Source: Terriglobales bacterium (GTDB lineage Bacteria > Acidobacteriota > Terriglobia > Terriglobales > SCQP01). From it: 64,000 bases of DNA. The DNA is taken from NCBI GenBank assembly GCA_050747745.1, contig JBOGKM010000086.1:69734-133733 (forward strand). Direction: 5' to 3'. The stretch's first letter is position 1; every line of letters begins with the position of its first letter. This document shows, piece after piece, positions 65 through 41,203 of the stretch. The translations under genes were made by a program, and so were the position numbers. The notes under the pieces were generated by a model. The model did not search any database, had not been told where the DNA came from, and saw only the letters and a program-made list of their open reading frames with translations.

Positions 65-877
65 ATGAGCGGGGGGCGGTGGCAAGTACGGGTGCTGGTG
101 CCGGGGCTGCCGCTGCAGGCGTGTTCGGTGCTGCTGACGCGGGCGCGGGAGGGAGGCGGGAAGGCGGAGCAGATCATCGTGGACACGTGTTTTCCGCAGC
201 ACGACACGCTGCTGCAGGACGGGCTGGCGCGGATGCGGGTGGCGCCGGGGGAGATCACGGGGATCATCAACACGCACTATCACCTGGACCATTGCGGCGG
301 GAACTTTCTGTTTCCGCAGGCGTGGGTGTACGGATCCAAGCGGGACTGTGATTGGGCGATCTCGATTTACGAGAGCGTGAGCGGGGGGGAGACACGGCGC
401 GAGGTATTCCGGACGTTTTATCCGGAGGCGACGGACGAGGAATTCGGCCGGATGGACGAGGCGCGGGTGCTGCAACTGCTGACCTGGATGTGGGATCCGG
501 CGATCTTGGGCGAACGCGGGCGGTACCGGTGGTGGGAAGAAGGGGAGCTGGGGGTGGAGGGGCTGCGGGTGATACCGACGCCGGGGCATTCGCCGGGGCA
601 CCTAGCGGTGCAGGTGCGGGGCGAAGAGGGGCCGTATCTGCTGGCGGGAGATGCGCGGGCGTTTGCCGACGACGTGGCGGAGGGCTTCGACATGCCGCCG
701 CATAACCGGGAGCTTTTTCGGCGATCGCGGCAGCGGCTGGATCAATTCCGCGGGGTGGTGATTCCGGGCCACGATGATCCGTTTACGCAGGAGAGGGAGT
801 CGGCGGCGGCGGTGCGGAGCACGGTGCGGGCGCCGGAAGGCCGGCTGGGGCGGCGGCTGGAGAACAAGCAACCATGA
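65..877 (+). CDS. MBL-fold metallo-hydrolase (lactonase/glyoxalase II-like)
   Basis: 270-aa ORF with the metallo-beta-lactamase motif THYHLDHCGG (HxHxDH) and later TPGHSPGH and PGHDD ligand-like motifs. Its stop overlaps the next start (ATGA at 874-877). Confidence 0.8.
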   Translation: MSGGRWQVRVLVPGLPLQACSVLLTRAREGGGKAEQIIVDTCFPQHDTLLQDGLARMRVAPGEITGIINTHYHLDHCGGNFLFPQAWVYGSKRDCDWAISIYESVSGGETRREVFRTFYPEATDEEFGRMDEARVLQLLTWMWDPAILGERGRYRWWEEGELGVEGLRVIPTPGHSPGHLAVQVRGEEGPYLLAGDARAFADDVAEGFDMPPHNRELFRRSRQRLDQFRGVVIPGHDDPFTQERESAAAVRSTVRAPEGRLGRRLENKQP

Positions 878-2070: not shown

Positions 2071-2086
2071 GGACACAACAACAGCT

Positions 2087-3256
2087 ATGAAAGCCGCAAT
2101 TATTTCCGCGGAGTGGTCTCCGCGTCCTGGATATGCCGTAACGCCGGAAGAGAACCGCACGCACATGGCACGGGTGGGCAGCTCGTGCTGGAAACATCCG
2201 GCGGCGGCGGTGGGAACGCTGCCGGATCCGGAGCCCGGGCCCGACGATGTGATTCTGCGGGTGGGAGCGGCGGGGCTGTGCGGCAGCGACCTGCACTTTT
2301 TCGAAACCGACGGGGACGGGTACATGCAGTATCCCGGCATGGCGCGTTTTCCGAGCGTGCCCGGGCACGAGGTGTCGGGCGAGGTGGTGGCCTGCGGGGC
2401 GCAGGTGAGGTATCTGAAGGCGGGCGACCTGGTGTGCCTGGACGACATGGTGTGCTGCCACAAGTGCGAGGCGTGCCGGCGGGGATTTCCCAACCAGTGC
2501 GAGAACTTGGACGACGTGGGTTTTACCATGAACGGCGGCTGCGCCGAGCTGCTGCGGGTACCGGAGAGCAACTGCTGGAAGATCAACCAATTGGTGGAGC
2601 GGTTCGGGTCGAAGGCGAAGACGCTGGAAGCAGGAGCAGTGATCGAGCCGTTCACGGTGGGGTACAACGCACTGTTCGAGTGCGCAGCGCGGATCAAGCC
2701 AGGCGTGTACGCGACCGTGTTTGGAGCGGGATCGATCGGGCTGGCGGTGATCCAACTGCTGCGGGCGACGGGAGCGGCAAAGGTGCTGTGCTTCGAGCGC
2801 AATGCCGGGCGGCGGGAGCTGGCGAGCAAAGTGGGCGCGCATGCGGTATTCGAGGCGGGCGAAGCGGCGGCGACGGCGGCGAGGGTGATGGAGGCCACCG
2901 GCGGAGCGGGTGCGGACGTGCAGGTGGAGTGCGCGGGGGCGTTCCAGTCGAGCATCGCGGCGATGGAGGGATGCGCGGCCAACGGCAGCCAGGTGGTGGT
3001 GATTGGCCGAGATGTGGCGCGCGTGCCGGTGTTTCTGGAGACCTACCAGGTGAAGAAGGCCAACATCATTGGAGCCATGGGCAACACCGGGTATGGAACC
3101 TATCCCAACGTGCTGCGGATGATGGCGGCAGGGCTGTTGGATCCGACCTTGTTCATAACCGACCGGTACCGGCTGGAGGAATTCAACGGAGCGCTGAAGA
3201 AGGCGCAGAGCCGGGCGGGGGGGAAGGTGCTGCTGAAAATCGGGGATCAGGGATAG
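2087..3256 (+). CDS. Zinc-dependent alcohol/polyol dehydrogenase (MDR family)
   Basis: 389-aa ORF with PGHEVSGEVV (catalytic Zn), the cysteine cluster CCHKCEACRRGFPNQC (structural Zn) and a Rossmann GAGSIGLAV motif. Confidence 0.85.
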   Translation: MKAAIISAEWSPRPGYAVTPEENRTHMARVGSSCWKHPAAAVGTLPDPEPGPDDVILRVGAAGLCGSDLHFFETDGDGYMQYPGMARFPSVPGHEVSGEVVACGAQVRYLKAGDLVCLDDMVCCHKCEACRRGFPNQCENLDDVGFTMNGGCAELLRVPESNCWKINQLVERFGSKAKTLEAGAVIEPFTVGYNALFECAARIKPGVYATVFGAGSIGLAVIQLLRATGAAKVLCFERNAGRRELASKVGAHAVFEAGEAAATAARVMEATGGAGADVQVECAGAFQSSIAAMEGCAANGSQVVVIGRDVARVPVFLETYQVKKANIIGAMGNTGYGTYPNVLRMMAAGLLDPTLFITDRYRLEEFNGALKKAQSRAGGKVLLKIGDQG

Positions 3257-27589: not shown

Positions 27590-28348
27590 TCAGGGTTTCA
27601 CCGCGGCCAGGAGAACCTCGTCCTTGTCGCGGAGGAGCACGTCGAGAGACTCGAATCCGGCGTTGCGGAGGGCCGCCATCCAGGCGGATACCGGCATTTC
27701 GCCGGCACCAGGCGCACGCGCGATGGGCGAGCGGAGAAAGGGGATGTGGTTGTAGCCGAGAATTTCGTTGGCGCGATCCCAGAACCGCTGCCAGTTCTCG
27801 CGGCAATAACGGCTGGGCTGGCGTGACTTCCACTGCGCGAAGCAGGCGGCGAAGGCAGGCTCGGCTTCGGATGGCTCGACGGCGATAAAAACACCCCCGG
27901 AGCGGAGAAGCCGAAACACGTCCCGGCAAACCTCTTGAATGCGCTGCGCGCCGAGCCAGTGCAAGGTGTTGGCGGCGGCGGCCACGTCGTAGCCAGGCTG
28001 AAGATCCGTACTCCAGGACTCGTCCCACAAATCTCGGACCAGGTGACTGCCGGGGATGGCGGCGCGGCGGTTGACGGCGGCGCACATTGCCAGCAAGAAG
28101 ACGTCCCGATCGAGGCAATCTATTTTGGAGCCGCTATAGCGCGCATGCACGGCGCGCCCGGCATCGCCGGGGCCGCAGCCCAGATCCAGAACGCGGAGCC
28201 TTGCGCCTTGGGGAAACGGGAGGGTCGCGGCCAGCAAATCGAGGTCGCGGCCTTTTTCGGCGCCCTGCTCCGCCTGCCACAAGGCCAGCAGTTCATCGAG
28301 AACGGCCGGGCTGAGCCTGGCCTCGATCTTTTCCTGGGCGAGGGGCAT
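27590..28348 (-). CDS. Class I SAM-dependent methyltransferase (last gene of the lipid-like operon)
   Basis: 252-aa ORF with motif I VLDLGCGPGDAG and an acidic post-I residue (IDCLD). Its start lies 5 nt after the upstream stop. Confidence 0.8.
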   Translation of the reverse strand: MPLAQEKIEARLSPAVLDELLALWQAEQGAEKGRDLDLLAATLPFPQGARLRVLDLGCGPGDAGRAVHARYSGSKIDCLDRDVFLLAMCAAVNRRAAIPGSHLVRDLWDESWSTDLQPGYDVAAAANTLHWLGAQRIQEVCRDVFRLLRSGGVFIAVEPSEAEPAFAACFAQWKSRQPSRYCRENWQRFWDRANEILGYNHIPFLRSPIARAPGAGEMPVSAWMAALRNAGFESLDVLLRDKDEVLLAAVKP

Positions 28349-28353
28349 CGAGC

Positions 28354-29607
28354 TTACAAGCGTGACGCGCCCTGAGCGACCTTGCGAATCGCTTCACCGT
28401 AGGCGTGCATGAGCGCTTCCGGCTGGGCGTAGATCGGGAACTCGTCGTTGGTCAGGCAGAACGAGTTGGCGAACATGGCCACGGTGTTGGGGTAATTGTC
28501 CGCGCGGTCGCTGGGGTTGCGCGCCTGGATCATGGGGTGGGCGCACAGTGGCGCCGAACCCCACAGATCCACATCCACGCCCTCGGCGGCGAGCGCCCGC
28601 ATGAAGGCGTCGCGCAGGGCGGCGCCGCGCAGTTTGGTGTCGAGTTCCTCGGGTGCCAGCCTAATGCGGTACTTGTGGTAGACAGAAACGCAGTCCTTGG
28701 GGATATACGGCGCTTTCACGCCGGGCAGATCGCGCAAGTAGCCATCCAGGATGGCGGCGTTGTGCTGCCCCGTGGCGTTGACCTGCTTCAGCCGCGCGAG
28801 CTGGCTGCGGCCGAAGGCGCTGGGCAGCTCCTGCGTACGGTAATTCCAGGCGAGCAGGTGCTGAAATTCCATGGTGCGGTCGCTCGCGGGCAGAACTTCG
28901 CCGACTTGCTTGAGCCAATTGCCGCGGAAGTAAACTTCGTCCTCATTGGTGACCATGAAGCCGCCCTCGCCCACCGCGAAGTTCTTGGTGCCGTTGACGC
29001 TGAAGCCGGCGGCGGCGCCGAACGTACCGGCGGCGCGGCCCTGGTAGGTGGCGCCGGGCGCCTGGCAGGCATCCTCGGTTAGGATCAGGTTGTGTTTGCG
29101 GGCGATCGCCAGGATGGGACCGAAATCGGCGCACAGGCCGTGGATATCCACCACCATGAGGGCACGCGTGCGGGGCGTGATTTTGGCTTCGATCTGTGCG
29201 GGGTCGAGATTGAAGGTGCGTGGATCAATATCGACGAAGACGGGTTTGGCGCCCGCGTGGAGAATGGCCGCGGGCGTAGCCAGAAACGAAAATGCGGAAG
29301 TGATGACCTCGTCGCCGGATTCGACGCCGGCGGCGACCAGCGCCATATGCAGGCCGGCGGTGCCGCCGTTGACCGCGAGCGCATGGCGTACGCCGAGGAA
29401 GGCGGCGAACTCCTGTTCCAGCGCTGACTGTTCGGGCGCGTAGAGGCCTTCGGGGCGGGTCTGCGCCCATAGAATTTTGCGATCGATCACGCGCAACACC
29501 GCGGCGCGGTCGGCTTCGGTCACGATCGGCCAGGAAATTTTGGGCAAAGAGGCTGCCACCGCCGGCTCGCCGCCATGGACAGCCAGTTCCGTCACAAATG
29601 CTTTCAT
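28354..29607 (-). CDS. DegT/DnrJ/EryC1/StrS-family PLP aminotransferase
   Basis: 417-aa ORF. It has the family pattern DACQAPGATYQGRAAGTFGAAAGFSVNGTKNFAVGEGGFMVTN with the PLP lysine in FS-x-x-x-TKN. A GAGGA SD lies just upstream. Confidence 0.85.
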   Translation of the reverse strand: MKAFVTELAVHGGEPAVAASLPKISWPIVTEADRAAVLRVIDRKILWAQTRPEGLYAPEQSALEQEFAAFLGVRHALAVNGGTAGLHMALVAAGVESGDEVITSAFSFLATPAAILHAGAKPVFVDIDPRTFNLDPAQIEAKITPRTRALMVVDIHGLCADFGPILAIARKHNLILTEDACQAPGATYQGRAAGTFGAAAGFSVNGTKNFAVGEGGFMVTNEDEVYFRGNWLKQVGEVLPASDRTMEFQHLLAWNYRTQELPSAFGRSQLARLKQVNATGQHNAAILDGYLRDLPGVKAPYIPKDCVSVYHKYRIRLAPEELDTKLRGAALRDAFMRALAAEGVDVDLWGSAPLCAHPMIQARNPSDRADNYPNTVAMFANSFCLTNDEFPIYAQPEALMHAYGEAIRKVAQGASRL

Positions 29608-29629
29608 TCCTCAAATCCTTTCGCTGGAG

Positions 29630-30967
29630 TTAATCGCCCCAGGCCTGTGCCCGGGCGTCAATGAGCCGCCGCAGCTTGCGTCCGCCGCTGAGCGTGCGGG
29701 GCGGATGGAAACGGAAATCAAACTCAAAAAATTTCTTGGTGTAGTAGCGCCAACAGTCGGGAAAGCGCTCCTGGATGTTGCGGAACAGTTGCTCCTGCAC
29801 CGCCTGCGCATCGCCGCCGGGCCGCAGTTCCATGTTGAATTCAATGCGGTCGTCGCGATCGCCGCGGCGTACGATGACCTGCCAGTCGTCGGTGATTTGA
29901 GGGATATCGCGCAGCATCTCCTCGAACCAGTAGGGGCTGATGTTGCCCATCGAGCAGTTGATGAGCTCATCGCTGCGGCCGACGATTTTGGCGATGCGCG
30001 GGGTGAACCGCAGCAGGCAGTTGCACGTGCCGTCCGTGGCCCAACGGGTGATGTCGGCGGAGCGGTAACGCAGCAGCGGCATGACGGTGCGGTTGAGGGT
30101 GGAATAGGTGAGCTCGCCGTAGCCTTCCTCGTTGGCGCTGCTGATTTCGCTCACCAGGCTCAGGTGGCTCAGATGATAACCACCTTTGTCGGGGCATTCG
30201 ATGCCGTTGCAGCCGAACGCCTCGGTCTGGCCATAGCTGAGATAGACTTTGGCGTTCCAAACCGATTCGATGTATTTACGGGTGCGCTCGCTCAGGTTCT
30301 CGCCGCCCAGCAGCAGAAACTTGACCGGCCAGACGCCGTCCTGTTCGGCGACCTCGGTCACCCGCACCAGGTGGGTGGGCACGCCCATGATCACTGTCGG
30401 TTTGTAGCCGCGGATGCGCTCGTAAAACTCGCGCGGCTCGACGAAGGCGCCGATGACGTGGAACGAACCCATGGCCTGCACCGTGTAATAGGCGGTAAAC
30501 GGAGCGTTCCAGAAGGAGTAATCGAAACCATCAGCGACCACGTCGTCTGGACGCAGGCCCAGGTTCCACATTCCTACCGCGCCGTCGCGGCCGTACTCCA
30601 TCATCTCGGCATAGGAGAAGTAGACGCGTTTGTTGACGCCGAGCGTGGTGCCGGTGGTTTCAAAGCCGAATTCGGGGCGGTCACAGAGAAAATCCTCAAT
30701 CGGCCGCTGGCGCAGGTCATCGGAGGTGGTGTAGAAATCGCCCAGATCGGCGTGGCTATGGACCTTGCTCCAGTCAATGCCGCACTCGCGGAATTTTTCC
30801 TGGTAGAACTTCGAGCGCTTCGCCAAATGGCTGACCAGATGGCGGAATTTGGCGTGCTGGAGGGTGTTAATGGTGCGGGGAGAAAGATGGCGGGCGATGC
30901 GCACCCGGCTGGAGGTGGAGCGCAGGAAATGATGATCAAAGAAGCCGAAGAGAGTATCGATGTTCAT
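29630..30967 (-). CDS. PaaK / coenzyme F390 synthetase-like adenylate-forming enzyme (copy 1)
   Basis: 445-aa ORF. Motifs: P-loop-like FETTGTTLGVNKR, YGQTEAFG, YRSADIT, GRSDELI and a C-terminal K in GGRKLRRLID. Its ATGA overlaps the upstream KS stop. It is a paralog of 39791-41203. Confidence 0.8.
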   Translation of the reverse strand: MNIDTLFGFFDHHFLRSTSSRVRIARHLSPRTINTLQHAKFRHLVSHLAKRSKFYQEKFRECGIDWSKVHSHADLGDFYTTSDDLRQRPIEDFLCDRPEFGFETTGTTLGVNKRVYFSYAEMMEYGRDGAVGMWNLGLRPDDVVADGFDYSFWNAPFTAYYTVQAMGSFHVIGAFVEPREFYERIRGYKPTVIMGVPTHLVRVTEVAEQDGVWPVKFLLLGGENLSERTRKYIESVWNAKVYLSYGQTEAFGCNGIECPDKGGYHLSHLSLVSEISSANEEGYGELTYSTLNRTVMPLLRYRSADITRWATDGTCNCLLRFTPRIAKIVGRSDELINCSMGNISPYWFEEMLRDIPQITDDWQVIVRRGDRDDRIEFNMELRPGGDAQAVQEQLFRNIQERFPDCWRYYTKKFFEFDFRFHPPRTLSGGRKLRRLIDARAQAWGD

Positions 30968-32226
30968 GGTTCACTTGCCGCGCGGCGCAGGATGAGGCTG
31001 GAGTTCTGGCCGCCAAAACCGAACCCGTTGGACATGGCGGTTGCCAGCCGCGCGTGCTGGCCGGCGCGGGTAATCAGCTGCAGCCGGCAGTCGGGGTCGG
31101 GATGAGCGTGGTTGAGATTGGGCGGAAGCAACTGCTCCTGCAGCGCGATGAGGCTGAAGACCGCCTCGACGGCAGAGGCGGCAATCAGCAGGTGGCCGGT
31201 CATGGCCTTAGTCGAGCTCACCGGGAGCTGATCGGTGCCGTCGCCCCAGATGTTCCAAATGGCGGCGGCCTCGGCCTGATCGTTGAGCACGGTGCCGGTG
31301 CCGTGGGCGTTGAGGTAGTCAATCTCGCGTGGCTCCAGGCCGGCGTCGGCCAGGGCAGCCTGGATGGCCAGCACTGCACCGCGGCCCTGGGGATGGCACT
31401 TGGTCAGTCCAAATGCATCCATGGAGCTGCCGTAGCCGGCCAGCTCGGCCAGCACGGTGGCGCCGCGGCGGCGGGCATGGTCGGCCGATTCCAGCACCAG
31501 CGCCGCGGCGCCCTCGCCCACCACAAAGCCGGAGCGCTTGCGGTCGAAGGGACGGCAGGCGGTGGCGGCGGGTTCGCGCGACAGCGCCGACAGCATCTCA
31601 TACTCGAGCATGCTGAGCGGATGCACCTGGGAATCGGTGCCGCCGACGATGACCACTTCCGCCTCGCCGCGTTCGATGAGGCGCTTGCCCATGCCGATGG
31701 CATCGTTGCCGCTGGCGCAAGCGGTGTAGCAGGAGTAGCGCGGTCCGGCGGCCTGCGCCTGCGCCGCCAGCCGTTCCAGCACGGCGCTGATGTCGTAGTA
31801 TTCCCGATGCTGCTCGAGCTCGGGGAAATGGCGCAGCAAATTGGCGGGATCGAGCTGTTCGACTCCCAAGGCGGTGGCATCCTGGGCGCAGCGCGCGGCG
31901 AGCGGTTCCAACTCGAGCGTGGCCTTGCCGATGGCGAACGAGACTGCGCGAGCGGGGTCGGGGCCTTCCGCCGGCGGCAGTTGCGCCGCCGCCATCGCTT
32001 CCGCGATCGCCAGCCGCGCCATCGCGTCCATGCGCGGGGCGCCCCGCGGGACCGCGGCGTCGCGCACCTCGCCGGCGCAACTGATGGGAAATCCCTGGGC
32101 AGGGAAGGCGGAAATGGGCCCAATGCCGTTGACGCCCTGCTCCAGCGCAGCCCGCGTGGCGGCCATGCCCCGGCCCAGCGGTGACACGATCCCCGCGCCA
32201 GTAATGACGCAAGCCGAGGCCGTCAC
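30964..32226 (-). CDS. Beta-ketoacyl-ACP synthase (FabF/KS-alpha type, catalytic)
   Basis: Cys-His-His triad motifs YTACASGNDAIG, YLNAHGTGT and KAMTGHLLIAASAVE. The N-terminus [18 protein letters not shown] starts at GTG 32226, which forms a GTGA overlap with the upstream stop. The ORF-track extension to 32553 is not supported. Confidence 0.85.
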   Translation of the reverse strand: MTASACVITGAGIVSPLGRGMAATRAALEQGVNGIGPISAFPAQGFPISCAGEVRDAAVPRGAPRMDAMARLAIAEAMAAAQLPPAEGPDPARAVSFAIGKATLELEPLAARCAQDATALGVEQLDPANLLRHFPELEQHREYYDISAVLERLAAQAQAAGPRYSCYTACASGNDAIGMGKRLIERGEAEVVIVGGTDSQVHPLSMLEYEMLSALSREPAATACRPFDRKRSGFVVGEGAAALVLESADHARRRGATVLAELAGYGSSMDAFGLTKCHPQGRGAVLAIQAALADAGLEPREIDYLNAHGTGTVLNDQAEAAAIWNIWGDGTDQLPVSSTKAMTGHLLIAASAVEAVFSLIALQEQLLPPNLNHAHPDPDCRLQLITRAGQHARLATAMSNGFGFGGQNSSLILRRAASEP

Positions 32227-33098
32227 CGGTGCGCCTCCAGCAGCGCCGGAGCGGCGACGGCGGTGCGGGCCAGCTCGGCCAGCTCGATGCAGCCTCCCCC
32301 AGCCAGGCGCAGCAGCGCCGCGATCAGTTCCGGCGCCGGTTCGAATCCGGTCGGAGCTGGGGGCAGCGCTGCCGAGCTGTAGCTGACTTCCGCCAATACC
32401 GTCGCGCCGCGCCGGTGCGCCCTCTGCCAATCTTCCAGCACCACGGCGCCGCTGATTTCCGGCCATTGCGTCGAGGTGTAGGACTGCTCGGGCGAGCTGG
32501 CGGACTGGGCCAACATGAGATCGGCGCGGCCTTGGGCCACCGTCCACCAGCATTCGCTCAGCGCCTGCATGCCCGCCCCAGCGCCGGAGGTAAACGAAAA
32601 GCCCGGCCCTTGCAGGCCCAGCAGCAGCGAGGTGTGGCCGACGGCCATGTTGGCCAGCAGCGCCAGACGGCGGAACGGATGCAACTCGCGCGCCCCCAGC
32701 TCGGCGAAGCGCGCCCAGCCATCGGGCCCGCAGCCCATGTGCGGCGCGACGGCGGCGAGAACGCGCAACAGGTCGGGGGTAACCGGGGAAATATCGGCCA
32801 GTGCCGTGGCCAAACCCGCTCGTTCCGGCGCCACGCCCATGGCTTGTACTCCGCCCTCGGCGGGCATGCCCGCCGCTTCCATGGCCATCACCGCCGCTGC
32901 GGTGACCAGTTGGAACGTGCGATGCATGGTGCGCAGGCGGCGGGGATTGCGGATGAAGGCGGCAGGATTAAAATCGGGCACCAGACCGGCTTGGCTGGAA
33001 TGGGAGGCGGCCCACTGCTGCAGCGCGGCCACACCCGTGCCGCCGGGGGAAAACGCGCCCAGGCCGGTGACAGCAACCCGGCGGAGAGGGGCGCTCAT
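32223..33098 (-). CDS. Truncated KS-like protein lacking the catalytic residues (chain-length-factor-like partner)
   Basis: 291-aa ORF with a KS-type N-terminus [15 protein letters not shown]. The active-site region reads [12 protein letters not shown], with no Cys at the canonical position. The His-containing C-terminal half is absent. ATGA overlaps occur at both ends. Confidence 0.7.
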
Positions 33099-33844
33099 GC
33101 GCGCAGTCCTCCGTCCACGTTGAGGATGTGGCCGGTGATGTAGGCGGCATCGGGGGAGAGCAAAAACGCCACCGCGGCGGCGACTTCGTCGGGATGGCCG
33201 TAGCGGCGGAGCGCGATGGCGGCCAAAATTTGTTCACCCGCCAGTGCCCGCACCTGGGCGCTCATTTCGGTTTCGATCATGCCCGGCGCAACCGCGTTTA
33301 CGGTGATGTTGCGCGGCGCCAGCTCTTGCGCCAGCGCCTTGGTCAGGGCGTTGACACCGCCCTTGGAGGCCGCGTAGTTCACTTGGCCGCGGTTGGGGCG
33401 ATCGCCGGAGCTGGAGGAAAGATTGACGATGCGTCCGTGGCGCTGACGCACCATGAGCTTGGCCGCGGCCTGGCAGCAATGAAACATGCCGCCGAGGTTG
33501 GTGGCCAGCACCTGGTTCCATTCCTGCTCGCCCATGCCCAGCAACAGGTTATCGCGCACAATGCCCGCGTTATTGATCAGGGCGTCGAGGCGGCCGAGTT
33601 TTTGGTGGGCGCCCGCGACCAGTTCGTGCGCGGCGGCGGCATCGGCCACGTCGCCGGCGAGGGCCCAGGCCAGCCCGCCGCGGGCGGTAATCTCCTCCAC
33701 CACGTGTTCGGCGGCCGTGGCGTCGGCCCGGTAGTTGATAGCCACGTGCGCGCCTTCGGCGGCGAGGCGCATGGCGATAGCGCGGCCGATGCCGCGGCTG
33801 GCGCCGGTGATCAGCACAACCTGACCTTGCAGACGGTCAGGCAC
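33095..33844 (-). CDS. 3-oxoacyl-ACP reductase (FabG-type SDR)
   Basis: [20 protein letters not shown] and S...YAASKGG (Y-x3-K) motifs. Three starts are possible: ATG 33922 (59-nt overlap), TTG 33871 and GTG 33844. GTG 33844 gives the typical FabG N-terminal length of about 249 aa. Confidence 0.8.
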
Positions 33845-33863
33845 GGGCGCGGGGGTGCTGCTT

Positions 33864-35162
33864 TCAGGCAAGACTGCGATCCACCAACAGCGAGGCCGTG
33901 TTGCCACCCAGCCCGCTGGCATTGAGCAGCAAGCGGCGGTAAGAGCCAGGGCGCGCCTCGCCGCGCACCAGGTCCAGTCCCAGGTCAGGATCGGGAAGTT
34001 CGCAATTCAAGATCGGCGGCACGAAGCCAGGCTCCGCCAGCGCCCCCAGAGCGGCGATCAGCTCCAGCGGGCCAGAGCCAGCCAAAAGATTGCCGCTCAA
34101 CGACTTAACGGCAGTTACCGGCGTATGCGGCACACGCTCGCCCAACAGGCGGGCTATGGCTTCGGCTTCGGCGCGGTCGCCAGCAGGCGTGGCCAGGCCA
34201 TTGGCATAGATGGCTCCGATCTGGCCGGGAGCGAGCCCGGCATCGTCTAAAGCTGCCTCCATGGCGCCCAGGTACTCCTCAGCGCTCTCGTTGGGTCGCT
34301 CCGTGAGGCCGCTGCTGGCATTGCCGTAGCCGCGAATTTCGCCGTAAATGCGCGCTCCGCGGGCGCGCGCGTGCTCGCGTTCCTCCAGCACCACGAAGGC
34401 GCCGCCTTCGGCGGCTACAAAGCCTGCGCGACTGCGGTCAAAGGGGCGGCTGGCGGAAGCTCCATTGCCATCGCCCATGTACAGCAAGCCGGTCGGTTCG
34501 AAGCTTTCCAGCCGCTCCTCGTCTAGCAGGGACTCGTAACCGCCCGCAACGGCCAGATCCACGCGCCCACTGCGGATGGCGTGGAACGCCTCCCCCACTG
34601 CCATGCTGCCTCCGGCGCCGCTCATGCAGATGTTGGCATTGGGCCCCTGCGCCCCCAGCCGCATGCTGACGAAATAGAGCACCAGGTTCGCCAGGCTCTT
34701 CAGCAGCCAGAGGGGATTAATGATGGGGATGCCTTCGGCGCCGAAGCGTTGCAGATCCAGGCCGCTGCCGCCGTAGGACAGTTCCAGGGCCGGCAGCAGT
34801 TCATCGCGATCGCCGGCGTGCCCGGGCGAGCCGACGTAGCTGCCGACCCGTTCGGGAGCCAGCCCGGCACGCCTCTCGTCCAGACCGGCATCCTGTACCG
34901 CCAGTTCCACCGCCGCCACGCCCAGACGCACCGGGCGGGTCATCAGCTTCAAGGCCTTGGCGTCCTTAATAAATTGCCGGGGTTGAAAATCGCGCACGGC
35001 GCCGCCCACGTGCGTGCGGTACGCCTCCAGCGACATGTGCGGCACAGTCCCGACGCCGCTCTGGCCGGCGCGCAGCGCCGCCCAGACCGCGGGAACGGAA
35101 TTGCCCAACGGCGACACCGTTCCGGCGCCGGTAATGACCGCCCGCCGGGGTTCAGGATGCAT
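33864..35162 (-). CDS. Full-length KS-like protein with degenerate active site (partner subunit)
   Basis: KS fold throughout ([15 protein letters not shown] ... GGNTASLLV). Both catalytic His are Asn ([12 protein letters not shown]; [11 protein letters not shown]). Ungapped spacing places Gly at the nucleophile position ([10 protein letters not shown]). ATG 35162 overlaps the upstream stop by 11 nt. Confidence 0.75.
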
Positions 35163-36450
35163 AGGCGCGCAAGACCAGGCTCCCATTGGAGCCGCCGAAA
35201 CCGAAGGAATTGGAGACCACGGTGCGCACCGTTTGCTCGCGGCCGTGATTGGGCACGTAGTCGAGGTCGCAGACCGGATCGGGGTGTTCGTAATTGATGG
35301 TCGGCGGGATAAAGCCGCGTCCGATCACCAGGGTCGAGATGATGGCTTCGATGGCGCCGGCCGCGTTGACCATGTGCCCGGTCATCGATTTGGTCGAGCT
35401 GATCGGAATTTTGGCGGCGTATTCCCCGAAGCAGCGCTTGATGGCCATGGTTTCGCTGGAATCGTTTTGCAGCGTCGAAGTGCCATGGGCGTTGATGTAG
35501 TCCACCTCGGCGGCAGCGATGCCGGCGTCGGCCAGGGCGGCCTGCATGGCCAGCATGGGACCCTGTCCGTCGGGCGGAGAATCGGTAATGCGGTAGGCGT
35601 TGATGGAGGCGCCAAAGCCAGCCAGTTCGGCATAGATACGGGCGCCGCGGCGGCGGGCGTGCTGTTCTTCTTCCAGCACCAGCATGGCGCCGCCCTCGGC
35701 GAGCACGAAGCCATCGCGCTCGCGGTCGAAGGGCCGGGAGGCTTGCTGGGGATGGTCGTTATTTTTCGACAGGGCACCCAGCAAAATGAATCCGGCGACC
35801 ATGGTCGGCTCCATCAGGCACTCGGCCCCGCCCGCGAGCATGACATCGGCTGCGCCGTTGCGGATGGTGTCAAGCGCGTAACCAAGGGCCTGGGAGCTGG
35901 AGGTGCAGGCGGTGGAAATGGTGGCCATGGGACCGCGCGCCTGCAATTCAGCCGCCAACACGTAGCCCAGCCCGTAGGGCGAGTAGCGCAAATACTCCCA
36001 ACTGGGAACCGCGGCCAGTACTTTGCGGCGCTCGCTCAAGCCGGGCGGACGCAGTTTGCGTTCGGCGAGTTCGGGCAGGAGACTGTCGCGGCGGCCTTCC
36101 GTGCCCAGGGCAATGCCCAGCCGTCTGGGATCCACCCCGGCAGCATCGCCCGGCTTCAGACCTGCATCCGCGAAAGCGGCACGGGCGGCGAACCAGCCGA
36201 AGGAGTTTTTGCGGTCCAGGGCTTCGGCGATAGGCGGCCGCGCCTGGGCGCGGGCATGCTCGGGATCGAAGCCTTTTACTTCACCGCCGATGCGTGTCTC
36301 AAACGTCGATGCATCGAATAGCGTGAGCGGACCGATGCCGCAGCGGCCGGCCCGCAGACCCTCCCAGGTGGACTCGTGCGTGTGCCCCAGCGGCGTAATG
36401 GCCCCCAGTCCAGTGATGACCACGCGGCGGCGATGGCCGTTGCCGTTCAT
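35152..36450 (-). CDS. Beta-ketoacyl-ACP synthase II (FabF type, catalytic)
   Basis: ISTACTSSSQALG, YINAHGTSTLQND and KSMTGHMVNAAGAIE. N-terminus MNGNGHRRRVVITGLGAITPLG at ATG 36450 forms an ATGA overlap with the dehydratase stop. Confidence 0.9.
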   Translation of the reverse strand: MNGNGHRRRVVITGLGAITPLGHTHESTWEGLRAGRCGIGPLTLFDASTFETRIGGEVKGFDPEHARAQARPPIAEALDRKNSFGWFAARAAFADAGLKPGDAAGVDPRRLGIALGTEGRRDSLLPELAERKLRPPGLSERRKVLAAVPSWEYLRYSPYGLGYVLAAELQARGPMATISTACTSSSQALGYALDTIRNGAADVMLAGGAECLMEPTMVAGFILLGALSKNNDHPQQASRPFDRERDGFVLAEGGAMLVLEEEQHARRRGARIYAELAGFGASINAYRITDSPPDGQGPMLAMQAALADAGIAAAEVDYINAHGTSTLQNDSSETMAIKRCFGEYAAKIPISSTKSMTGHMVNAAGAIEAIISTLVIGRGFIPPTINYEHPDPVCDLDYVPNHGREQTVRTVVSNSFGFGGSNGSLVLRAYAS

Positions 36451-36956
36451 GCCGGTTCTCCCGGGCGAGAGCCAATTTCCAAGCCCTGGAGCAGGCTTCG
36501 GTTCACCTGCTCCGCCCACAGGTCGAGTTGAGCCCGCGCGGCCGGCGGAATCACCTGGTTCTGCCCAGAGTCATAACCGAGCATCAATTCCGCTGAAGCC
36601 ACCGGTTTGCCAGCTACCTTGGCGGTGCAGCGGCAACGCCCGGCGCCATCCACTAGTCCCATCATTTCCGCACGCAGCTCAACAGTGTCCCCGGGGCGGA
36701 CAAAATGGCGGAAACGGGCGTTTTGGATGGTGAGGAGCACTGGCAGCACCTTTTCACCCCCCTCGGCAGCGACCGAGTAAGTAATCAGGCGTCCCGCCAG
36801 TTGCGCCATGGCTTCCACCAGCAGCACCCCGGGCACCACCGGGAAACCGGGGAAATGATCGTTGAAGTAATCCTCGCTGAGGGCGACACACTTATGCCCC
36901 ACTGCGTGCGAACCCGGCTGCAGTTCAGTGATCCGATCGAGGAGCAGATAGCGCAT
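36447..36956 (-). CDS. 3-hydroxyacyl-ACP dehydratase (FabZ/FabA hot-dog fold)
   Basis: From ATG 36956: MRYLLLDRITELQPG...AVGHKCVALSEDYFNDHFPGFPVVPGVLLVEAMAQLAG, the canonical FabZ active-site His region. Confidence 0.9.
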   Translation of the reverse strand: MRYLLLDRITELQPGSHAVGHKCVALSEDYFNDHFPGFPVVPGVLLVEAMAQLAGRLITYSVAAEGGEKVLPVLLTIQNARFRHFVRPGDTVELRAEMMGLVDGAGRCRCTAKVAGKPVASAELMLGYDSGQNQVIPPAARAQLDLWAEQVNRSLLQGLEIGSRPGEPA

Positions 36957-36958
36957 GC

Positions 36959-37444
36959 CTAGTGGACGGCAGCTTTTTCCGCCTCCAACTCGCCGATGCG
37001 CCACGCCACCAGCCGGGCAAAGGTCTCGGGCGTAAAGAGGGCGGGAATTTCCCTCGAGGTGAGGCCAACGTGCAGCTTGGCGGGGTTGACCTCAGGCATC
37101 AGAACGCGCAGCCGCTCCAGGGCGGCTGCGGTGAGCACGCCATTTTGCTGGAATTCGGCTTCGGTGAGCGAACCCTGGGTGGCGCGCTGAATGCCGCCGC
37201 GTGGGATCTTGATGCCGAAGGCGGACTCGAGCCGGAACAGCAGGTCGAGGAAATCCAGCGATTCGGCGTTGAGATCGTTCATGAGGCTGCTGGAGGGCTG
37301 GACTTCGCTTTCCTCCCGGCCCAAAACTTCGGCCACGGCGCTGCGCACCGTGCCCAGAATCTCGTCGTGCCGGCTAGCCAGCACACGATCGGCGGTTTCG
37401 CGAATCTTGACAACTTCCAAGGCACTGGCACTTGCTTCAGGCAT
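36959..37444 (-). CDS. Acyl carrier protein with an ~80-aa C-terminal extension
   Basis: ATG 37444 is preceded by an AAGGAG SD. The phosphopantetheine-site motif is LNAESLDFLDLLFRLESAFGIKI (DSL-type Ser). At 161 aa it is about twice normal ACP length. Confidence 0.75.
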   Translation of the reverse strand: MPEASASALEVVKIRETADRVLASRHDEILGTVRSAVAEVLGREESEVQPSSSLMNDLNAESLDFLDLLFRLESAFGIKIPRGGIQRATQGSLTEAEFQQNGVLTAAALERLRVLMPEVNPAKLHVGLTSREIPALFTPETFARLVAWRIGELEAEKAAVH

Positions 37445-37476
37445 AGGCAGGAGCTCCTTGCGTGAATTTTCAACTT

Positions 37477-38262
37477 CTAGCTGACGCTCAGCAGCGATAA
37501 GCCGCCGTCGGCGATGATAGTCTGTCCGTAAATCCAATTGGCTGCGTCCGAACACAAAAAGGCCGCGACTTCGGCCAGATCCTCGGGCGTGCCGATGCGC
37601 CCGGCAGGTGAAATCTTCTCACACGCTTCCTTCATTTGGGCGTAATTGGCGAACAATTTGAGGGCATCGGTATCGATCGGTCCGCCCGAGAGCGTGTTGC
37701 AGTTGATACCCTCCTTGCCTAGCTCCACGGCCATATAGCGGGTCAGGGCCTCGGTGGCGGCTTTGGTGACGCCGATGGAGGCGTAGCCGGGAATGTAGTA
37801 CTGGGAACCGAGGCTGGAGAGGCTCAAAATTTTCCCCCGGCGGCCTTTCATCAGCGGCACTGCCTTTTGGGTACTGAGCAGCAGAGCGTTGGTATTGCCA
37901 TTGATCGTGTGATCCCAGCCCGCCAGGCGCTGGCGCAGGACGGGGCCGTAGGTGCCAACGTCAATGGCGTTATTCACGAAGATGTCGAGCACGCCGAAAT
38001 GCTCCTGCACCGCGCCGAACAACTTGGCGATGCCCTCGGCGCTGGTCGCGTCGGCGTTGACGGTTTCCGCTCGCCGGCCCAGGGCGCGAATTTCCTCCGC
38101 CAGTTTCGCCGCCGCATCTCCGCTGGTGACAAAGTTGATCACCACGTCGGCGCCGCCCTGCGCCAAGCGCAGTGCGATGGCGCGGCCGATGCCGCGCGCC
38201 GCGCCCGTGATGAGCGCAACTTTCCCACTTAGTCCGTTACTTTCCCCCATTGCCTCCCCCAC
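37477..38262 (-). CDS. fabL: Enoyl-ACP reductase, FabL-type SDR
   Basis: Close by-eye match to B. subtilis FabL blocks: LSSLGSQYYIPGYASIGVTKAATEALTRYMAVEL (Y-x6-K), LSGGPIDTDALKLF and GQTIIADGGLSLLS. The cofactor motif is [13 protein letters not shown]. The start is GTG 38262 or ATG 38250. Confidence 0.8.
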   Translation of the reverse strand: MGEAMGESNGLSGKVALITGAARGIGRAIALRLAQGGADVVINFVTSGDAAAKLAEEIRALGRRAETVNADATSAEGIAKLFGAVQEHFGVLDIFVNNAIDVGTYGPVLRQRLAGWDHTINGNTNALLLSTQKAVPLMKGRRGKILSLSSLGSQYYIPGYASIGVTKAATEALTRYMAVELGKEGINCNTLSGGPIDTDALKLFANYAQMKEACEKISPAGRIGTPEDLAEVAAFLCSDAANWIYGQTIIADGGLSLLSVS

Positions 38263-38291
38263 GCTCTGCGGTGCAACTCCGCCGAGGCCGT

Positions 38292-39587
38292 CTACGACCG
38301 TACCGCCTGGGCCACCGGCTGCAGTTTGGGCGCCAGACGATGGAAGGCCTGCTGCAGATGCTGATACTGCGCTCCCAAGTCATGCTCGGGACGGCCATGC
38401 AGCGTCTGCGGGCTCTTGAAGTAGAAGCCCAGCCACTCCAGCGCGCCCTTTTCTCCCGCCCGCTGCGCCGCCGCGCTTAGCAGCGCCAGATCGAGCAGCA
38501 GCGGAGCCGCCAGAATGCTATCCCGGCAGAGAAAGTTGATCTTGATCTGCATGGGGTAACCCAGCCATCCGATTATGTCGATGTTGTCCCAGCTTTCCTT
38601 GTTGTCGCCGCGGGGCGGGTAGTAGTTGATCTTCACCTGGTGCGAGAGCTTGCCGTATAGCTCCGGGTAGCATTCTGGCTGCAGGATGTGATTCAGCGCC
38701 GACAGCTTGGATTCCTCCTTGGTGCGGAAGGCGGCGGGATCGTCCAGCGTGGCGCCATCGCCATTGCCCAAAATGTTGGTCGAAAACCACCCCGCCAGAC
38801 CCAGCATGCGCTGCTTGATGCCGGGCGCGAGGATGGTTTTCAGCAGCGTCTGGCCGGTCTTGAGATCCTTGCCGCTTACCGGGCAGCCCTGGGCTTCTGC
38901 CAGTTCGATCATCACCGGCATATCCACCGTCAGGGTAGGTGTGGCGTTCACAAAGCCGCACTTTTCCTTCAGCGCCGCATAGGCATAGACCATGCTGGGT
39001 GCGATGGTGGGTTCGTTCTCCTTCATCGCGGTCTCAAAAATCTTGAGGCTCTGATGGGCTGGGCCGATGGGCAGGAAAACTTCAGTGGAACCGCACCACA
39101 TTACCACCACCTGCTCCAGCCGGTGCTGCGTCTTAAAGGCGCGGATGTCTTCGCGCAGCGCTTCCGCCTGCTCGAACTTGTTGGTTTGCGCCTTGAGGTG
39201 GCGCCCTTCGCTGCGGCGCAGATACTGCGGATCGTGGATGCCGGGCAGCGACTTAATGGCCTCGAGCGCGGGGCGCACTGCGGCCAACTGCATCGGTTCC
39301 AGAACCGCTGCCGCCACCGCCATCTCATAGGCGTTGCCGGCGTGGATATCCCAGCCGCCGAACACCAGATCTTCCAGAGCCGTCAGTTGCAGATACTCGC
39401 TCAGGCTGACGCTTTTTCGTGCGCCCGCAGGCGTAATTTGCGCCAACTGCGTCAGCGACCCGAACGGCCGTGCCGAGCCCTGGCGGATGGCCTCGACGCC
39501 CGCAATCAGCGTCGTCGAGATGGCGCCCATGCCGACCAGCATTACTCCCAGACGGGACGAACCTGCATTCCTCGTAGTAGTACTCAT
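38292..39587 (-). CDS. ino1: myo-Inositol-1-phosphate synthase family enzyme
   Basis: ATG 39587 has a GGGGAGGG SD. Blocks match archaeal/bacterial MIPS: VMLVGMGAISTTLIAGVEAIRQG, MVYAYAALKEKCGFVNATP, GKDLKTGQTLLKTILAPG...AGWFSTNILGNGDG, ILAAPLLLDLALL and FYFKSP. Confidence 0.85.
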   Translation of the reverse strand: MSTTTRNAGSSRLGVMLVGMGAISTTLIAGVEAIRQGSARPFGSLTQLAQITPAGARKSVSLSEYLQLTALEDLVFGGWDIHAGNAYEMAVAAAVLEPMQLAAVRPALEAIKSLPGIHDPQYLRRSEGRHLKAQTNKFEQAEALREDIRAFKTQHRLEQVVVMWCGSTEVFLPIGPAHQSLKIFETAMKENEPTIAPSMVYAYAALKEKCGFVNATPTLTVDMPVMIELAEAQGCPVSGKDLKTGQTLLKTILAPGIKQRMLGLAGWFSTNILGNGDGATLDDPAAFRTKEESKLSALNHILQPECYPELYGKLSHQVKINYYPPRGDNKESWDNIDIIGWLGYPMQIKINFLCRDSILAAPLLLDLALLSAAAQRAGEKGALEWLGFYFKSPQTLHGRPEHDLGAQYQHLQQAFHRLAPKLQPVAQAVRS

Positions 39588-39790
39588 GCTTAGCCCTCCC
39601 CTTCTTTTTTTACGCAACCGCCGCGTCCGGCTAACGCCGGCTCCGTTGGGCGGCCAGGAGCTTTGCTCCCGCAGCTTGCGAACAACATGCCCGCAAGCCC
39701 TGATTTTGGGAAACTGCCAATTAATCGTCCGTTAAAAAATGATTAAACAGATTTAACCGTGAAATCGAACCCGTTGCCCTAGAGAACTGG
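39588..39790 (-). promoter_or_regulatory. AT-rich, hairpin-rich leader / internal promoter region ahead of the MIPS gene
   Basis: This is the only sizeable gap in the operon. An AT-rich island at ~39715-39770 contains the palindrome TTAAATCTGTTTAA. Three perfect stem-loops follow on the transcribed strand: 39674-39698 (7-bp stem), 39657-39669 (5 bp) and 39627-39640 (5 bp). An A-run and the SD come next. Confidence 0.35.
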
Positions 39791-41203
39791 CTAGAGACGC
39801 GCATGCTCCGGGCGCGGTAGTGCTTCTTTCGCCATCCTCTCGTCCACGACGCGGCGGAGCTTGTGGCGGCGGGAATCGCCGGAGTCGCGAAGCGCCCCAT
39901 GCGGCATCCAGCGAAGCTGCAGTTCAAACAAACCCATTTGCAGGTTCTTCTGGTAGTAGGGAAAAATTTCAGCGAAACGCTGGCGGAGACGGGCTTCGCG
40001 TTCGAGCAAGCTGGCGCGAGGATCGGCAGCCTCGCCATCCCGCAGCTCCAGCCGGGCTTCAATCAGGTCGCGGGATTCTGGCTGGAGCACGGCCACTTGC
40101 CATTCGCCGATGCCGGCATCCTCCTCAAGCCAGGTTTCGAAAATCCAGGGGCTGATCATGCCCATGCCGCAGGAGATGATTTCATCGCCGCGGCCCTGAA
40201 TACGATCAATGCGCCGCATTTTCTGCAGGATGCAGCCGCAAGGTTCGTCCAGAAAGCGGGTGATGTCGTTGGAGCGGTAACGGATCAGCGGCATCACCTT
40301 GCGGGTGATGGTGCTGAAAACCAGCTCGCCGAAGCCAGCCTGGTTGGGGTGGAGAATTTCGAAGATAAAGTTGGGTTCGTTGAGGTGATAGCCCTTTTGC
40401 GCGGGGCATTCAATGGCGCTGGCGCCCAGCGATTCGGTTTGGCCGTAGGCTTGATAGACTTTCGTGTTCCAGACGCCTTCGATCCATTTGCGGGTGCGCT
40501 CGCTCATGTTCTCGCTGCCGGCCAGAATGAACTTCACCGGCCAGGCGCCTTGGCGTTCAGCGATTTCCGTCAAGCTCACCAGCCAGGAGGTGTCCACCAC
40601 CATCACGTTGAACTCGTAATCGCGGACGCGGCGGTAGAACTCGGAGGGCTCGAGTTTGGAGGCGATCATGTGGAAACAGCCGACGGCGTTGAGCGAGTGC
40701 AGGAGGCTGATGCCCGCGTTCCAGAAGGCGTAATCGAAAGCGTCCACGACGCGGTCCTCGGGCCGCAGGCCGAGGTTCCACAACCCCACGGCGCCTTCGA
40801 AGCCGATGTCGTGGACTTCCTCGTTGGAAAAGTAGAGGCGCTTGTTGCGGGCGGTAGTGCCCGTGGTTTCAAAACCGGCTTGGGGCGGAGCGCACAAGAA
40901 CTCGCGCGTATCGCGCTCCCGCAGGTCGGCGGAAGTGGTGTAGAAATCGCCCAGGCCCTCGGGGCGTCGAATGCGGGAAATATCCAAACCCAACTCCGCG
41001 AAGCGCTGCCGATAGAAGGGGCTGTGAGCGTTGACACGTTCCAGGGTGGTCTGGAATTCGGCCAACTGCACGCGCTCGATCCAACTGCGCGGTGCGCGCT
41101 GGGCCAACTTGGCGCGCCGCGGCACACTGGGGCCGAGAAATAGTTTCTCCAGCAGCGTGGGAACTTGGTCGAGCATAGGCAACGGCGCCGTGCGCGCAGG
41201 CAC
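39791..41203 (-). CDS. PaaK / coenzyme F390 synthetase-like adenylate-forming enzyme (copy 2)
   Basis: 470-aa ORF with FETTGTTARNKR, YGQTESLG, YRSNDIT, GRGDEII and a C-terminal RRHKLRRVVD. It is collinear with copy 1 along its whole length. Confidence 0.8.
   Translation of the reverse strand: MPARTAPLPMLDQVPTLLEKLFLGPSVPRRAKLAQRAPRSWIERVQLAEFQTTLERVNAHSPFYRQRFAELGLDISRIRRPEGLGDFYTTSADLRERDTREFLCAPPQAGFETTGTTARNKRLYFSNEEVHDIGFEGAVGLWNLGLRPEDRVVDAFDYAFWNAGISLLHSLNAVGCFHMIASKLEPSEFYRRVRDYEFNVMVVDTSWLVSLTEIAERQGAWPVKFILAGSENMSERTRKWIEGVWNTKVYQAYGQTESLGASAIECPAQKGYHLNEPNFIFEILHPNQAGFGELVFSTITRKVMPLIRYRSNDITRFLDEPCGCILQKMRRIDRIQGRGDEIISCGMGMISPWIFETWLEEDAGIGEWQVAVLQPESRDLIEARLELRDGEAADPRASLLEREARLRQRFAEIFPYYQKNLQMGLFELQLRWMPHGALRDSGDSRRHKLRRVVDERMAKEALPRPEHARL

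Follow-up and report, generated by a model that had tools for sequence, protein, structure and literature searches.

Conserved gene context suggests an aminocyclitol-lipid operon in soil Terriglobales

Introduction

What product would call for fatty-acid elongation enzymes, an inositol-phosphate synthase and an aminotransferase to be encoded side by side? The question is raised by a 64,000-nucleotide stretch of a Terriglobales genome (contig JBOGKM010000086.1, positions 69,734 to 133,733; hereafter, the window), in which 13 consecutive minus-strand open reading frames (ORFs) run from 41203 to 27590. They encode two PaaK-like ligases (ligases 1 and 2), a myo-inositol-3-phosphate synthase (MIPS), a fatty acid synthase (FAS)-like set of proteins, a DegT-family aminotransferase (hereafter, DegT) and a methyltransferase. 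The Terriglobales rank with the most abundant bacteria of soils and, to our knowledge, little has been learned of their envelope lipids and secondary metabolites. From comparative gene context, we think it somewhat probable that the operon makes a lipid with an inositol-derived aminocyclitol (inosamine) head group.

An 11-gene unit conserved among soil Acidobacteria

The ORF listing and translations place the 13 genes head to tail (Table 1). Four junctions are 4-nt stop/start overlaps (30964-30967; 32223-32226, GTGA; 33095-33098; 36447-36450), an 11-nt overlap at 35152-35162 arises when the ketosynthase (KS)-like ORF begins at its second Met, which is the NCBI start, and the remaining gaps measure 2-32 nt given internal starts (GTG 33844 for the ketoreductase, KR; ATG 37444 for the acyl carrier protein, ACP), the methyltransferase gene beginning 5 nt past DegT. 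The sole large gap, 203 nt at 39588-39790, separates ligase 1 from MIPS. A first-pass annotation of this DNA had described such a run, with its overlaps and gaps, and had named the domains of each protein; the ORF coordinates bear out the former, and Pfam and NCBIfam profile searches of all 13 proteins agree with the latter in every case. Catalytic motifs, read from the translations or an alignment, are kept in both active KS proteins (KSa and KSb), the KR, the dehydratase (DH), the enoyl-ACP reductase (ER), the ACP, DegT and the methyltransferase.

We compared the 13 window proteins with 28 genome loci and 72 metagenome loci by tblastn. Terriglobales/Acidobacteria loci bearing the MIPS-to-DegT block, here called class A, all come from uncultured metagenome-assembled genomes (MAGs) or metagenome contigs. 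Every sufficiently long contig among them (17 genome loci and about nine metagenome loci) has the same 11 genes in identical order, namely MIPS, ER, ACP, DH, KSa, its KS-like partner KSLa, KR, the truncated KS-like partner tKSL, KSb, ligase 2 and DegT, and each gap in the series coincides with a contig end. The commonest flanks are GlmU-TPR-ligase 1 upstream and an AAA ATPase downstream. GlmU is missing from L012, whose upstream flank is ALAD and a poly-A polymerase, and from L021, which has ThiF there; in L001, a TetR gene and an unrelated methyltransferase gene precede MIPS, and a phosphopantetheinyl transferase (PPTase; ACPS) gene is inserted right after the ACP. Because the flanks differ between loci, the 11-gene block behaves as a unit.

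Judged by gene order, then, the conserved unit is the 11-gene MIPS-to-DegT operon, with ligase 1 and the methyltransferase outside it. The combination of enzyme kinds is widespread among soil Acidobacteria and present in at least one other phylum. The 13-gene unit of the first-pass annotation therefore holds for its 11 central genes; ligase 1 proved separable and the methyltransferase is found in the window only. MIPS and DegT are co-conserved with the KS genes, and the methyltransferase is not, as no homologue of it was found in any other locus at E < 1e-10. Methylation is therefore not a trait of the family.

The AAA ATPase is ClpB-D2-like, 355 aa long and encoded at 23382-24449 (-) in the window, where the methyltransferase and a permease part it from DegT; it directly follows DegT in L001, L007, L009, L021-L025, L043, L048, L049 and L052. 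It could be a conserved neighbour or a genuine component.

The FAS-like genes might also stand beside MIPS and DegT through an accident of synteny in one lineage, with no shared product. All class A carriers do belong to one order-level lineage, and both GlmU-TPR-ligase 1 upstream and the AAA ATPase downstream are conserved synteny; against this, differing flanks bound the block in several genomes, 4-nt junctions couple its genes, and the same families re-associate in another arrangement, for example in a Betaproteobacteria MAG (L039, class B, below). We find an accident hardly credible.

The same families in other architectures

In class B (L039, L040, L059, L065, L067 and L072), the parts are split between two divergent arms. 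The first reads MIPS-ER-long ACP-(metallo-beta-lactamase-fold, MBL, hydrolase)-DH-KS-KSL-KR-KSL-KS, where KSL denotes a KS-like protein, and the second reads ligase-DegT-IolM-type Zn-dependent alcohol dehydrogenase (ADH)-inositol monophosphatase (IMPase). The class B ADH passes the NCBIfam equivalog for IolM (485 bits, cut-off 450), and the IMPase is present in class B loci L039, L040, L065, L066 and L072. At L039:1-288 and L040:1-136, where each locus ends, the last KS gene is followed by one for a 545-aa radical SAM protein, which hints at chain modification.

Neither a KS nor an ACP is encoded in class C, which comprises at least 10 loci. Here a patatin-like lipase-ligase pair converges on Gfo/Idh/MocA-DegT, with MIPS beyond DegT. 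MIPS, DegT and the ligase family therefore travel together in three architectures (A, B and C), all of which also hold a likely source of free fatty acid: a patatin lipase in class C and, in the others, the FAS-like module, in some loci accompanied by an MBL hydrolase. The position adjoining DegT is filled by two unrelated families of dehydrogenase, IolM-type in class B and Gfo/Idh/MocA in class C, which argues that oxidation is needed before transamination and so points to a route from inositol through inosose to inosamine.

Class D combines a KS module with a HAD protein, a class III aminotransferase and the ligase, without MIPS, and to judge from its genes looks like a different amino-lipid pathway. 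Its fullest form, in L041/L074, reads KS-KS-FabA-radical SAM-polysaccharide deacetylase-ABC transporter-monogalactosyldiacylglycerol-synthase-like glycosyltransferase-HAD-class III aminotransferase-ligase-MBL, and L099, L100, L103, L104 and L112 share the KS-HAD-aminotransferase-ligase part.

Table 1. Coordinates of the 13-gene run, its leader and a possible distant helper operon in the window
Feature	Position	Strand	Remarks
PaaK-like adenylate-forming ligase 1	39791..41203	-	Pfam AMP-binding; NCBIfam DVU_1553 family 175 bits (cut-off 300)
Intergenic leader, ligase 1/MIPS	39588..39790	-	AT-rich 5' half, GC-rich hairpins in 3' half
28-nt element TTTAATCATTTTTTAACGGACGATTAAT	39720..39747	-	three kTTAAy repeats, 11-nt register
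Myo-inositol-3-phosphate synthase (MIPS)	38292..39587	-	Pfam NAD_binding_5 274 bits, Inos-1-P_synth 108 bits
FabL-type enoyl-ACP reductase (ER), a short-chain dehydrogenase/reductase (SDR)	37477..38262	-	NCBIfam FabL 284.5 bits (cut-off 328)
Acyl carrier protein (ACP), 161 aa	36959..37444	-	Pfam PP-binding, first 50 of 67 profile positions only; serine in AESLD
FabZ/ApeI-like 3-hydroxyacyl-ACP dehydratase (DH)	36447..36956	-	Pfam FabA 75.8 bits; NCBIfam fabZ 117 bits (cut-off 155)
Ketosynthase KSa (Cys-His-His)	35152..36450	-	Pfam ketoacyl-synt and C-terminal domain; NCBIfam fabF subfamily 445 bits (cut-off 387)
KS-like partner KSLa, full-length	33864..35162	-	Gly/Asn/Asn replacing Cys/His/His; 11-nt overlap with KSa
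FabG-type 3-ketoacyl-ACP reductase (KR)	33095..33844	-	NCBIfam 3oxo_ACP_reduc 290.5 bits (cut-off 297.75); YAASK present
Truncated KS-like partner tKSL	32223..33098	-	Pfam ketoacyl-synt N-domain only, 40.9 bits; no C-terminal domain
Ketosynthase KSb (Cys-His-His)	30964..32226	-	Pfam, NCBIfam, alignment
PaaK-like adenylate-forming ligase 2	29630..30967	-	Pfam AMP-binding and AMP-binding_C_2
DegT/DnrJ/EryC1/StrS pyridoxal phosphate (PLP) aminotransferase	28354..29607	-	Pfam 283.6 bits; lysine motif NGTKNFAVGEGG
SAM-dependent methyltransferase	27590..28348	-	Pfam Methyltransf_12/25
Possible trans-acting helper operon	65..3256	+	MBL-fold hydrolase 65-877, class I/II aminotransferase 874-2070, IolM-type Zn dehydrogenase 2087-3256

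Genes for the head group

By sequence, MIPS looks genuine and ordinary. It is 57-60% identical to the widespread stand-alone bacterial MIPS, and its best match in the PDB is an inositol-3-phosphate synthase (7nwr, 468 bits). A role as an Ari2-like synthase of five-membered cyclitols was rejected, since 6k96 scores 68 bits against 468 for the genuine enzyme.

The PDB matches of DegT (best, 8GYH) include Gln:scyllo-inosose and 2-deoxy-scyllo-inosose aminotransferases together with sugar-nucleotide enzymes. The window protein shares 55-58% identity with DegT of class B and 45% with that of class C, and its gene context leads us to propose that it is an inosose aminotransferase. Reading MIPS and DegT as an inosamine route draws on the dehydrogenase slot, the class B IMPase and the step order of hygromycin A biosynthesis. 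Among the members of such a pathway, the operon encodes MIPS and a DegT-family protein with its PLP lysine. It contains no inositol or inosose dehydrogenase, the nearest candidate being an IolM-type ADH 24 kb from the 13-gene run; tblastn with the class B IMPase found no IMPase in the 64-kb window.

That ADH ends a possible helper operon (Table 1). With 463.7 bits against a cut-off of 450 it passes the NCBIfam equivalog for IolM (scyllo-inosose 3-dehydrogenase), and it aligns along its full length, at 48% identity, with the ADH of the class B ligase-DegT operon; the MBL protein encoded with it is 33% identical to the class B MBL. These similarities are suggestive of a functional link to the lipid operon. 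To the left of the trio lies only the C-terminus of a histidine kinase, so no cluster is hidden there. Two ADOP/MacB-type duplicated permeases are encoded at 3260-5656 (-), directly after the IolM-type ADH, and at 24884-27295 (-), 294 nt downstream of the methyltransferase; they are possible exporters, but the family is greatly expanded in Acidobacteria.

Alternatively, chain and cyclitol might be joined without an N-acyl inosamine, as an inositol(-phosphate) ester or ether lipid, with DegT aminating a keto group of the chain or a sugar nucleotide. The class A operon is without a dehydrogenase or phosphatase, DegT is equally similar to sugar-nucleotide and inosose aminotransferases, and GlmU is nearby, all of which would fit. 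But DegT is tied to MIPS and a dehydrogenase even where KS genes are missing (class C), the class B DegT shares an operon with the IolM-type ADH and IMPase, no enzymes of nucleoside diphosphate-sugar metabolism and no glycosyltransferases occur in classes A, B and C, and GlmU belongs to conserved flanking synteny that L012 and L021 lack. We regard this alternative as quite unlikely.

Two PaaK-like ligases

Ligases 1 and 2 are 46% identical to each other. Neither reaches the PaaK equivalog TIGR02155 (110 and 96 bits, respectively; cut-off 646), and no paa genes lie nearby. An AlphaFold2 (AF2) model of ligase 2 (pLDDT 78) is matched by Foldseek to BT_0428, PaaK1/2, NatL2, AjiA1 and ClxA, which confirms the PaaK fold and does not tell a coenzyme A (CoA) ligase from an amide ligase. 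Outside the Terriglobales, a search with ligase 2 recovered a family of about 443 aa that is 43-55% identical to it. Five cysteines are invariant in the ligase family (C95, C258, C315, C317 and C338, numbered as in ligase 2). Two of them make up a CxC pair, and the five may form a metal site; the AF2 model has low confidence around residues 329-343.

In a neighbour-joining tree, the class B ligases form the sister group of ligase 2, and ligase 1 groups with the ligases of classes C and D, so the two are old paralogues. Ligase 1 is missing upstream of MIPS in at least four loci that bear the core (L001, L012, L020 and L021), and at L085:9872-21063 it stands beside GlmU-TPR with no 11-gene operon, followed by a sortilin/BNR protein and a large outer-membrane barrel. 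Fifty distinct ligase genes are flanked on both sides by 3 kb of sequence or more; 35 of them have a DegT or class III aminotransferase gene within 3 kb, and the remaining 15 are all class A copies of ligase 1. Because the ligase, those copies apart, always lies beside an amine-forming enzyme, and a source of fatty acid is present, it would be expected to join acid to amine.

The ligases might instead be priming enzymes like ApeH or FlxY, loading a starter acid on the ACP, with the aminocyclitol contained within the starter or attached by another route such as direct aminolysis of the acyl-ACP or an unlinked acyltransferase. Consistent with this, NCBIfam matches them to FlxY (93-112 bits) and to CoA-ligase families, they flank an ACP-centred module, and class A lacks a thioesterase that could release the acid so that it might be activated anew. 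The NCBIfam scores lie far under their cut-offs (520 for FlxY), however, class C retains ligase, DegT, dehydrogenase and MIPS without any ACP or KS, and the association with aminotransferases just described holds for every adequately flanked ligase gene save the class A ligase 1 copies. We consider priming an unlikely role.

The fatty-acid module

The proteins presumed to make the tail comprise two Cys-His-His KSs, adjacent KS partners that lack the triad, and discrete ACP, KR, DH and ER, as in type II FAS and polyketide synthase (PKS) systems; the KS heterodimers are putative. Malonyl transacylase and PPTase genes are not in the cluster, with no Acyl_transf_1 or ACPS domain found in the operon or its flanks, and L001 alone was noted to have an ACPS gene after the ACP. 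In an alignment the triad motifs are TACTS/NAHGT/GHM in KSa and TACAS/NAHGT/GHL in KSb, and tKSL, which overlaps both the KR and KSb by 4 nt, has Ala at the position of E. coli FabF Cys163. Both KS proteins are closest to FabF, so that the module is FabF-like and not aromatic-PKS-like. KSLa orthologues (52-81% identical) were found only in Terriglobales/Acidobacteria MAGs. More distant relatives of KSLa (35-46% identity) occur in other multi-KS clusters without MIPS (L006, L030, L031 and L004/L005), one of which combines five KS genes with ACPS, a shikimate-dehydrogenase-like gene and several dehydratases of the FabA/ApeI type, and one of which has a malonyl transferase.

The KR passes subfamily model NF009466 (261 bits, cut-off 222), and the DH has the His/Glu motifs DHFPG and LVEAMAQ, its orthologues bearing ApeI-like annotation. 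The ER, with its Tyr-x6-Lys kept, finds its best PDB match in B. subtilis FabL (3OIC, 209 bits; best FabG, 150). An SDR of this type, 42-43% identical, also adjoins the KS module in class D loci without MIPS (L100 and L112). The FabL-like SDR was considered as the missing inositol dehydrogenase and rejected because of its FabL Y-x6-K motif, its top PDB match and its company with MIPS-less KS modules. Because the module includes an ER, a largely saturated chain is expected.

The ACP is unusually extended. Its C-terminal ~70 residues are strongly conserved (KIPRGGIQ...ALERLRxLMPEV...IPxLFTxETFxRLVAWR in L001, L003, L036, L039, L040 and L006), and the extension is kept in classes A and B and in an unrelated MIPS-less multi-KS cluster (L006). 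PDB ACPs align to the N-terminal part only (profile positions 17-88), leaving the C-terminal part without a sequence match among solved ACPs; the single-sequence AF2 model (pLDDT 52.7) is too low in confidence for use, and NCBIfam gives a weak match to AcpM. The first-pass annotation had held that this is not the housekeeping fab layout, and we agree, as no PlsX, FabH or FabD lies near the operon, the ACP has 161 aa, and MIPS and DegT stand inside the operon.

It had likewise excluded a canonical aryl-polyene (APE) cluster. An APE, flexirubin-like or other polyene pigment cluster with unrelated neighbours would account for the ApeI-like DH, the truncated KS partner reminiscent of ApeC and a KR near FlxB (254 bits). 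Yet a FabL-type ER is conserved in the module, neither the 13 genes nor their neighbours include an ammonia or chorismate lyase, LolA/MMPL, LPLAT, glycosyltransferase or thioesterase, the Flx models stay below cut-off (FlxB 253.8 bits against 340; FlxY 93 and 112 bits against 520), and the KS proteins are closest to FabF. With an ER present and accessory genes absent, we rejected APE/flexirubin membership, and we think any polyene product very improbable. Ring formation of the cispentacin/coronafacic kind (AmcE/F, Cfa1-5) was also rejected, AmcF (148-229 bits, cut-off 325) and AmcE (45.9 bits, cut-off 140) being generic matches.

A proposed route to an N-acyl inosamine

Taken at the level of domains and motifs, the tail module would work as two KSs, each with a dead KS-like partner, that together with the KR, DH and ER extend and reduce an acyl chain on the long ACP, malonyl transfer and phosphopantetheinylation being left to housekeeping enzymes. 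For the head group, family membership and context suggest that MIPS would cyclise glucose-6-phosphate to inositol-3-phosphate and that, after dephosphorylation and oxidation to an inosose, DegT would transaminate it to inosamine. Ligase 2 would then adenylate the released fatty acid and pass the acyl group to the amine, as a CoA-independent amide ligase; that the ligase joins fatty acid to inosamine is the most economical model and, we infer, the most likely one. Ligase 1, anciently diverged, may add or load another acyl group, and the methyltransferase, in this genome only, may add a methyl group. The first-pass annotation had pictured a FAS-II-like tail joined by a ligase to an aminated inositol head; the context of three architectures supports that outline, and the methylation it also envisaged is not conserved.

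Several points weigh against this route. The class A operon contains no inositol dehydrogenase, phosphatase, thioesterase, malonyl transferase or exporter by Pfam and tblastn, and domain searches of the operon confirm the first-pass statement that no malonyl transferase, thioesterase, PPTase or exporter is encoded. The IolM-type ADH 24 kb away may be simply catabolic, and other class A loci have nothing comparable to the MBL-aminotransferase-IolM-like genes at up to 10 kb from the operon. DegT scores 190 bits with perosamine synthetase and 173 with scyllo-inosose transaminase, so that its sequence does not separate the substrates. The best NCBIfam matches of the ligase, all below cut-off, are CoA ligases and FlxY, and the enzyme could load a starter acid onto the ACP instead. 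Finally, conservation inside the Terriglobales partly reflects shared ancestry and synteny.

More tentatively still, and with less than even confidence, we suggest that N-acyl-inosamine lipids are an unrecognised class, and that several phyla make them with one modular system. Common to all forms of that system would be MIPS, an inositol dehydrogenase, DegT and a ligase of the PaaK family that works as an amide synthetase without CoA, with the fatty acid coming from a two-KS FAS with a long ACP (Terriglobales, class B) or from membrane lipids by way of patatin (class C).

A conserved element upstream of MIPS

The first-pass annotation had called the leader between ligase 1 and MIPS AT-rich and hairpin-rich. 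At 203 nt it does carry GC-rich hairpins in its 3' half; AT-richness is limited to the 5' half, and folding is modest (-73.8 kcal/mol; z = -2.35 relative to shuffled sequences). No Rfam family matches the leader as a known RNA or riboswitch.

Within it lies a 28-nt element with the consensus TTTAATnnTnnTTTAACnnnnGrTTAAT. We examined 26 distinct class A upstream regions, and each has the element 51-160 nt ahead of MIPS, with one copy per locus. Each copy matches 17-20 of the 20 fixed positions, compared with a maximum of 13 in shuffled sequences, and in the window the element is unique even when three mismatches are allowed (0 expected). It is absent from the intergenic regions of classes B and C. 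We presume from its placement that it is a promoter or operator of the MIPS-to-DegT operon; its conservation upstream of MIPS argues that the block has a control region of its own, and it gives a handle on regulation. A promoter-like site at 41213-41241 precedes ligase 1, which is probably a separate transcription unit.

Elsewhere in the window

Up to about 24 kb the window has a strongly positive GC skew (0.09-0.28); over the operon the skew is close to zero, and past about 46 kb it is negative, so that its cumulative value peaks inside the window. An 861-aa fusion of AMP-binding and PlsC-type acyltransferase domains is encoded at 59412-61997 (-), which we take to resemble a bifunctional acyl-ACP synthetase/lysophospholipid acyltransferase, and a tRNA gene lies near it at 59233-59303.

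Comparison with known systems

If the proposed route is right, it adds a new lipid head-group chemistry, in which an aminocyclitol amide replaces glycerol phosphate or a sugar, gives a job to a large unannotated branch of PaaK ligases, and makes class C a five-gene minimal module; should the model fail, the locus is one more orphan FAS/PKS-like cluster from MAGs. The operon is a new combination of known enzyme kinds. The first-pass annotation did not recognise the gene combination, and we likewise found no description of the gene set or of such a lipid in the literature, subscription journals lying outside the search; the logic of head, tail and ligation each has precedents, nonetheless.

The closest likeness for the head group is the aminocyclitol of hygromycin A in Streptomyces hygroscopicus, for which Hyg18 (MIPS), Hyg25 (phosphatase), Hyg17 (inositol dehydrogenase), Hyg8 (aminotransferase) and Hyg6 (methyltransferase) are described, in a proposed step order of MIPS, dephosphorylation, oxidation, transamination and methylation (PMC10949010). 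The two systems come from different organisms, and their ligase families and the order of their genes differ. The hygromycin A cluster includes the dehydrogenase and the phosphatase; the class A operon has neither, and also no counterpart of the furanose part. In hygromycin A, discrete FAS-like enzymes and a CoA ligase serve to make the acid that N-acylates the inosamine. That acid is a short aryl-methacrylate, whereas two KS/dead-KS pairs and an ER would build the chain here.

In rhizopine (scyllo-inosamine and 3-O-methyl-scyllo-inosamine) and streptomycin/spectinomycin pathways, an inosose that stems from myo-inositol is the substrate of a DegT/StsC/MosB-type aminotransferase, and methylation is optional; the window DegT matches PDB relatives named Gln:scyllo-inositol transaminase (173 bits). 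The products of those pathways are free or glycosylated aminocyclitols, and neither fatty-acid machinery nor a PaaK-like ligase is known to be linked to them.

For the tail, APE and flexirubin clusters resemble the operon in pairing a discrete KS with an inactive KS-like protein of reduced length, and in having an adenylating enzyme and an ACP of their own beside a FabG-like KR and an ApeI-like DH. They differ in that the operon has an ER, MIPS and DegT, and is without aryl-starter enzymes, LolA/MMPL, LPLAT, glycosyltransferase and thioesterase. The rhizobial acpXL-fabZXL-fabF2XL-fabF1XL set and mycobacterial KasA/KasB-AcpM use a private ACP, paired KSs and a dehydratase to extend chains for a dedicated lipid; their acceptor is lipid A or mycolate, and no cyclitol, aminotransferase or PaaK-like ligase is known to take part.

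Ligation of the kind proposed has two models. In the C5N three-enzyme amide-forming system, ATP-dependent ligases couple an amino-carbocycle with a polyketide acid. NatL2, AjiA1 and ClxA (benzoxazole pathways) are PaaK-family, CoA-independent ester/amide ligases that activate an acid as its adenylate and transfer it straight to an oxygen or nitrogen nucleophile (PMC7204872, PMC12519233). They share the PaaK fold with the window ligases at 18-25% identity and act on aryl acids; that CoA or ACP is skipped here as well is what we infer from context. By analogy, then, the operon would unite a head group of the hygromycin A/rhizopine kind, a tail of the APE/AcpXL kind and ligation of the NatL2/ClxA kind.

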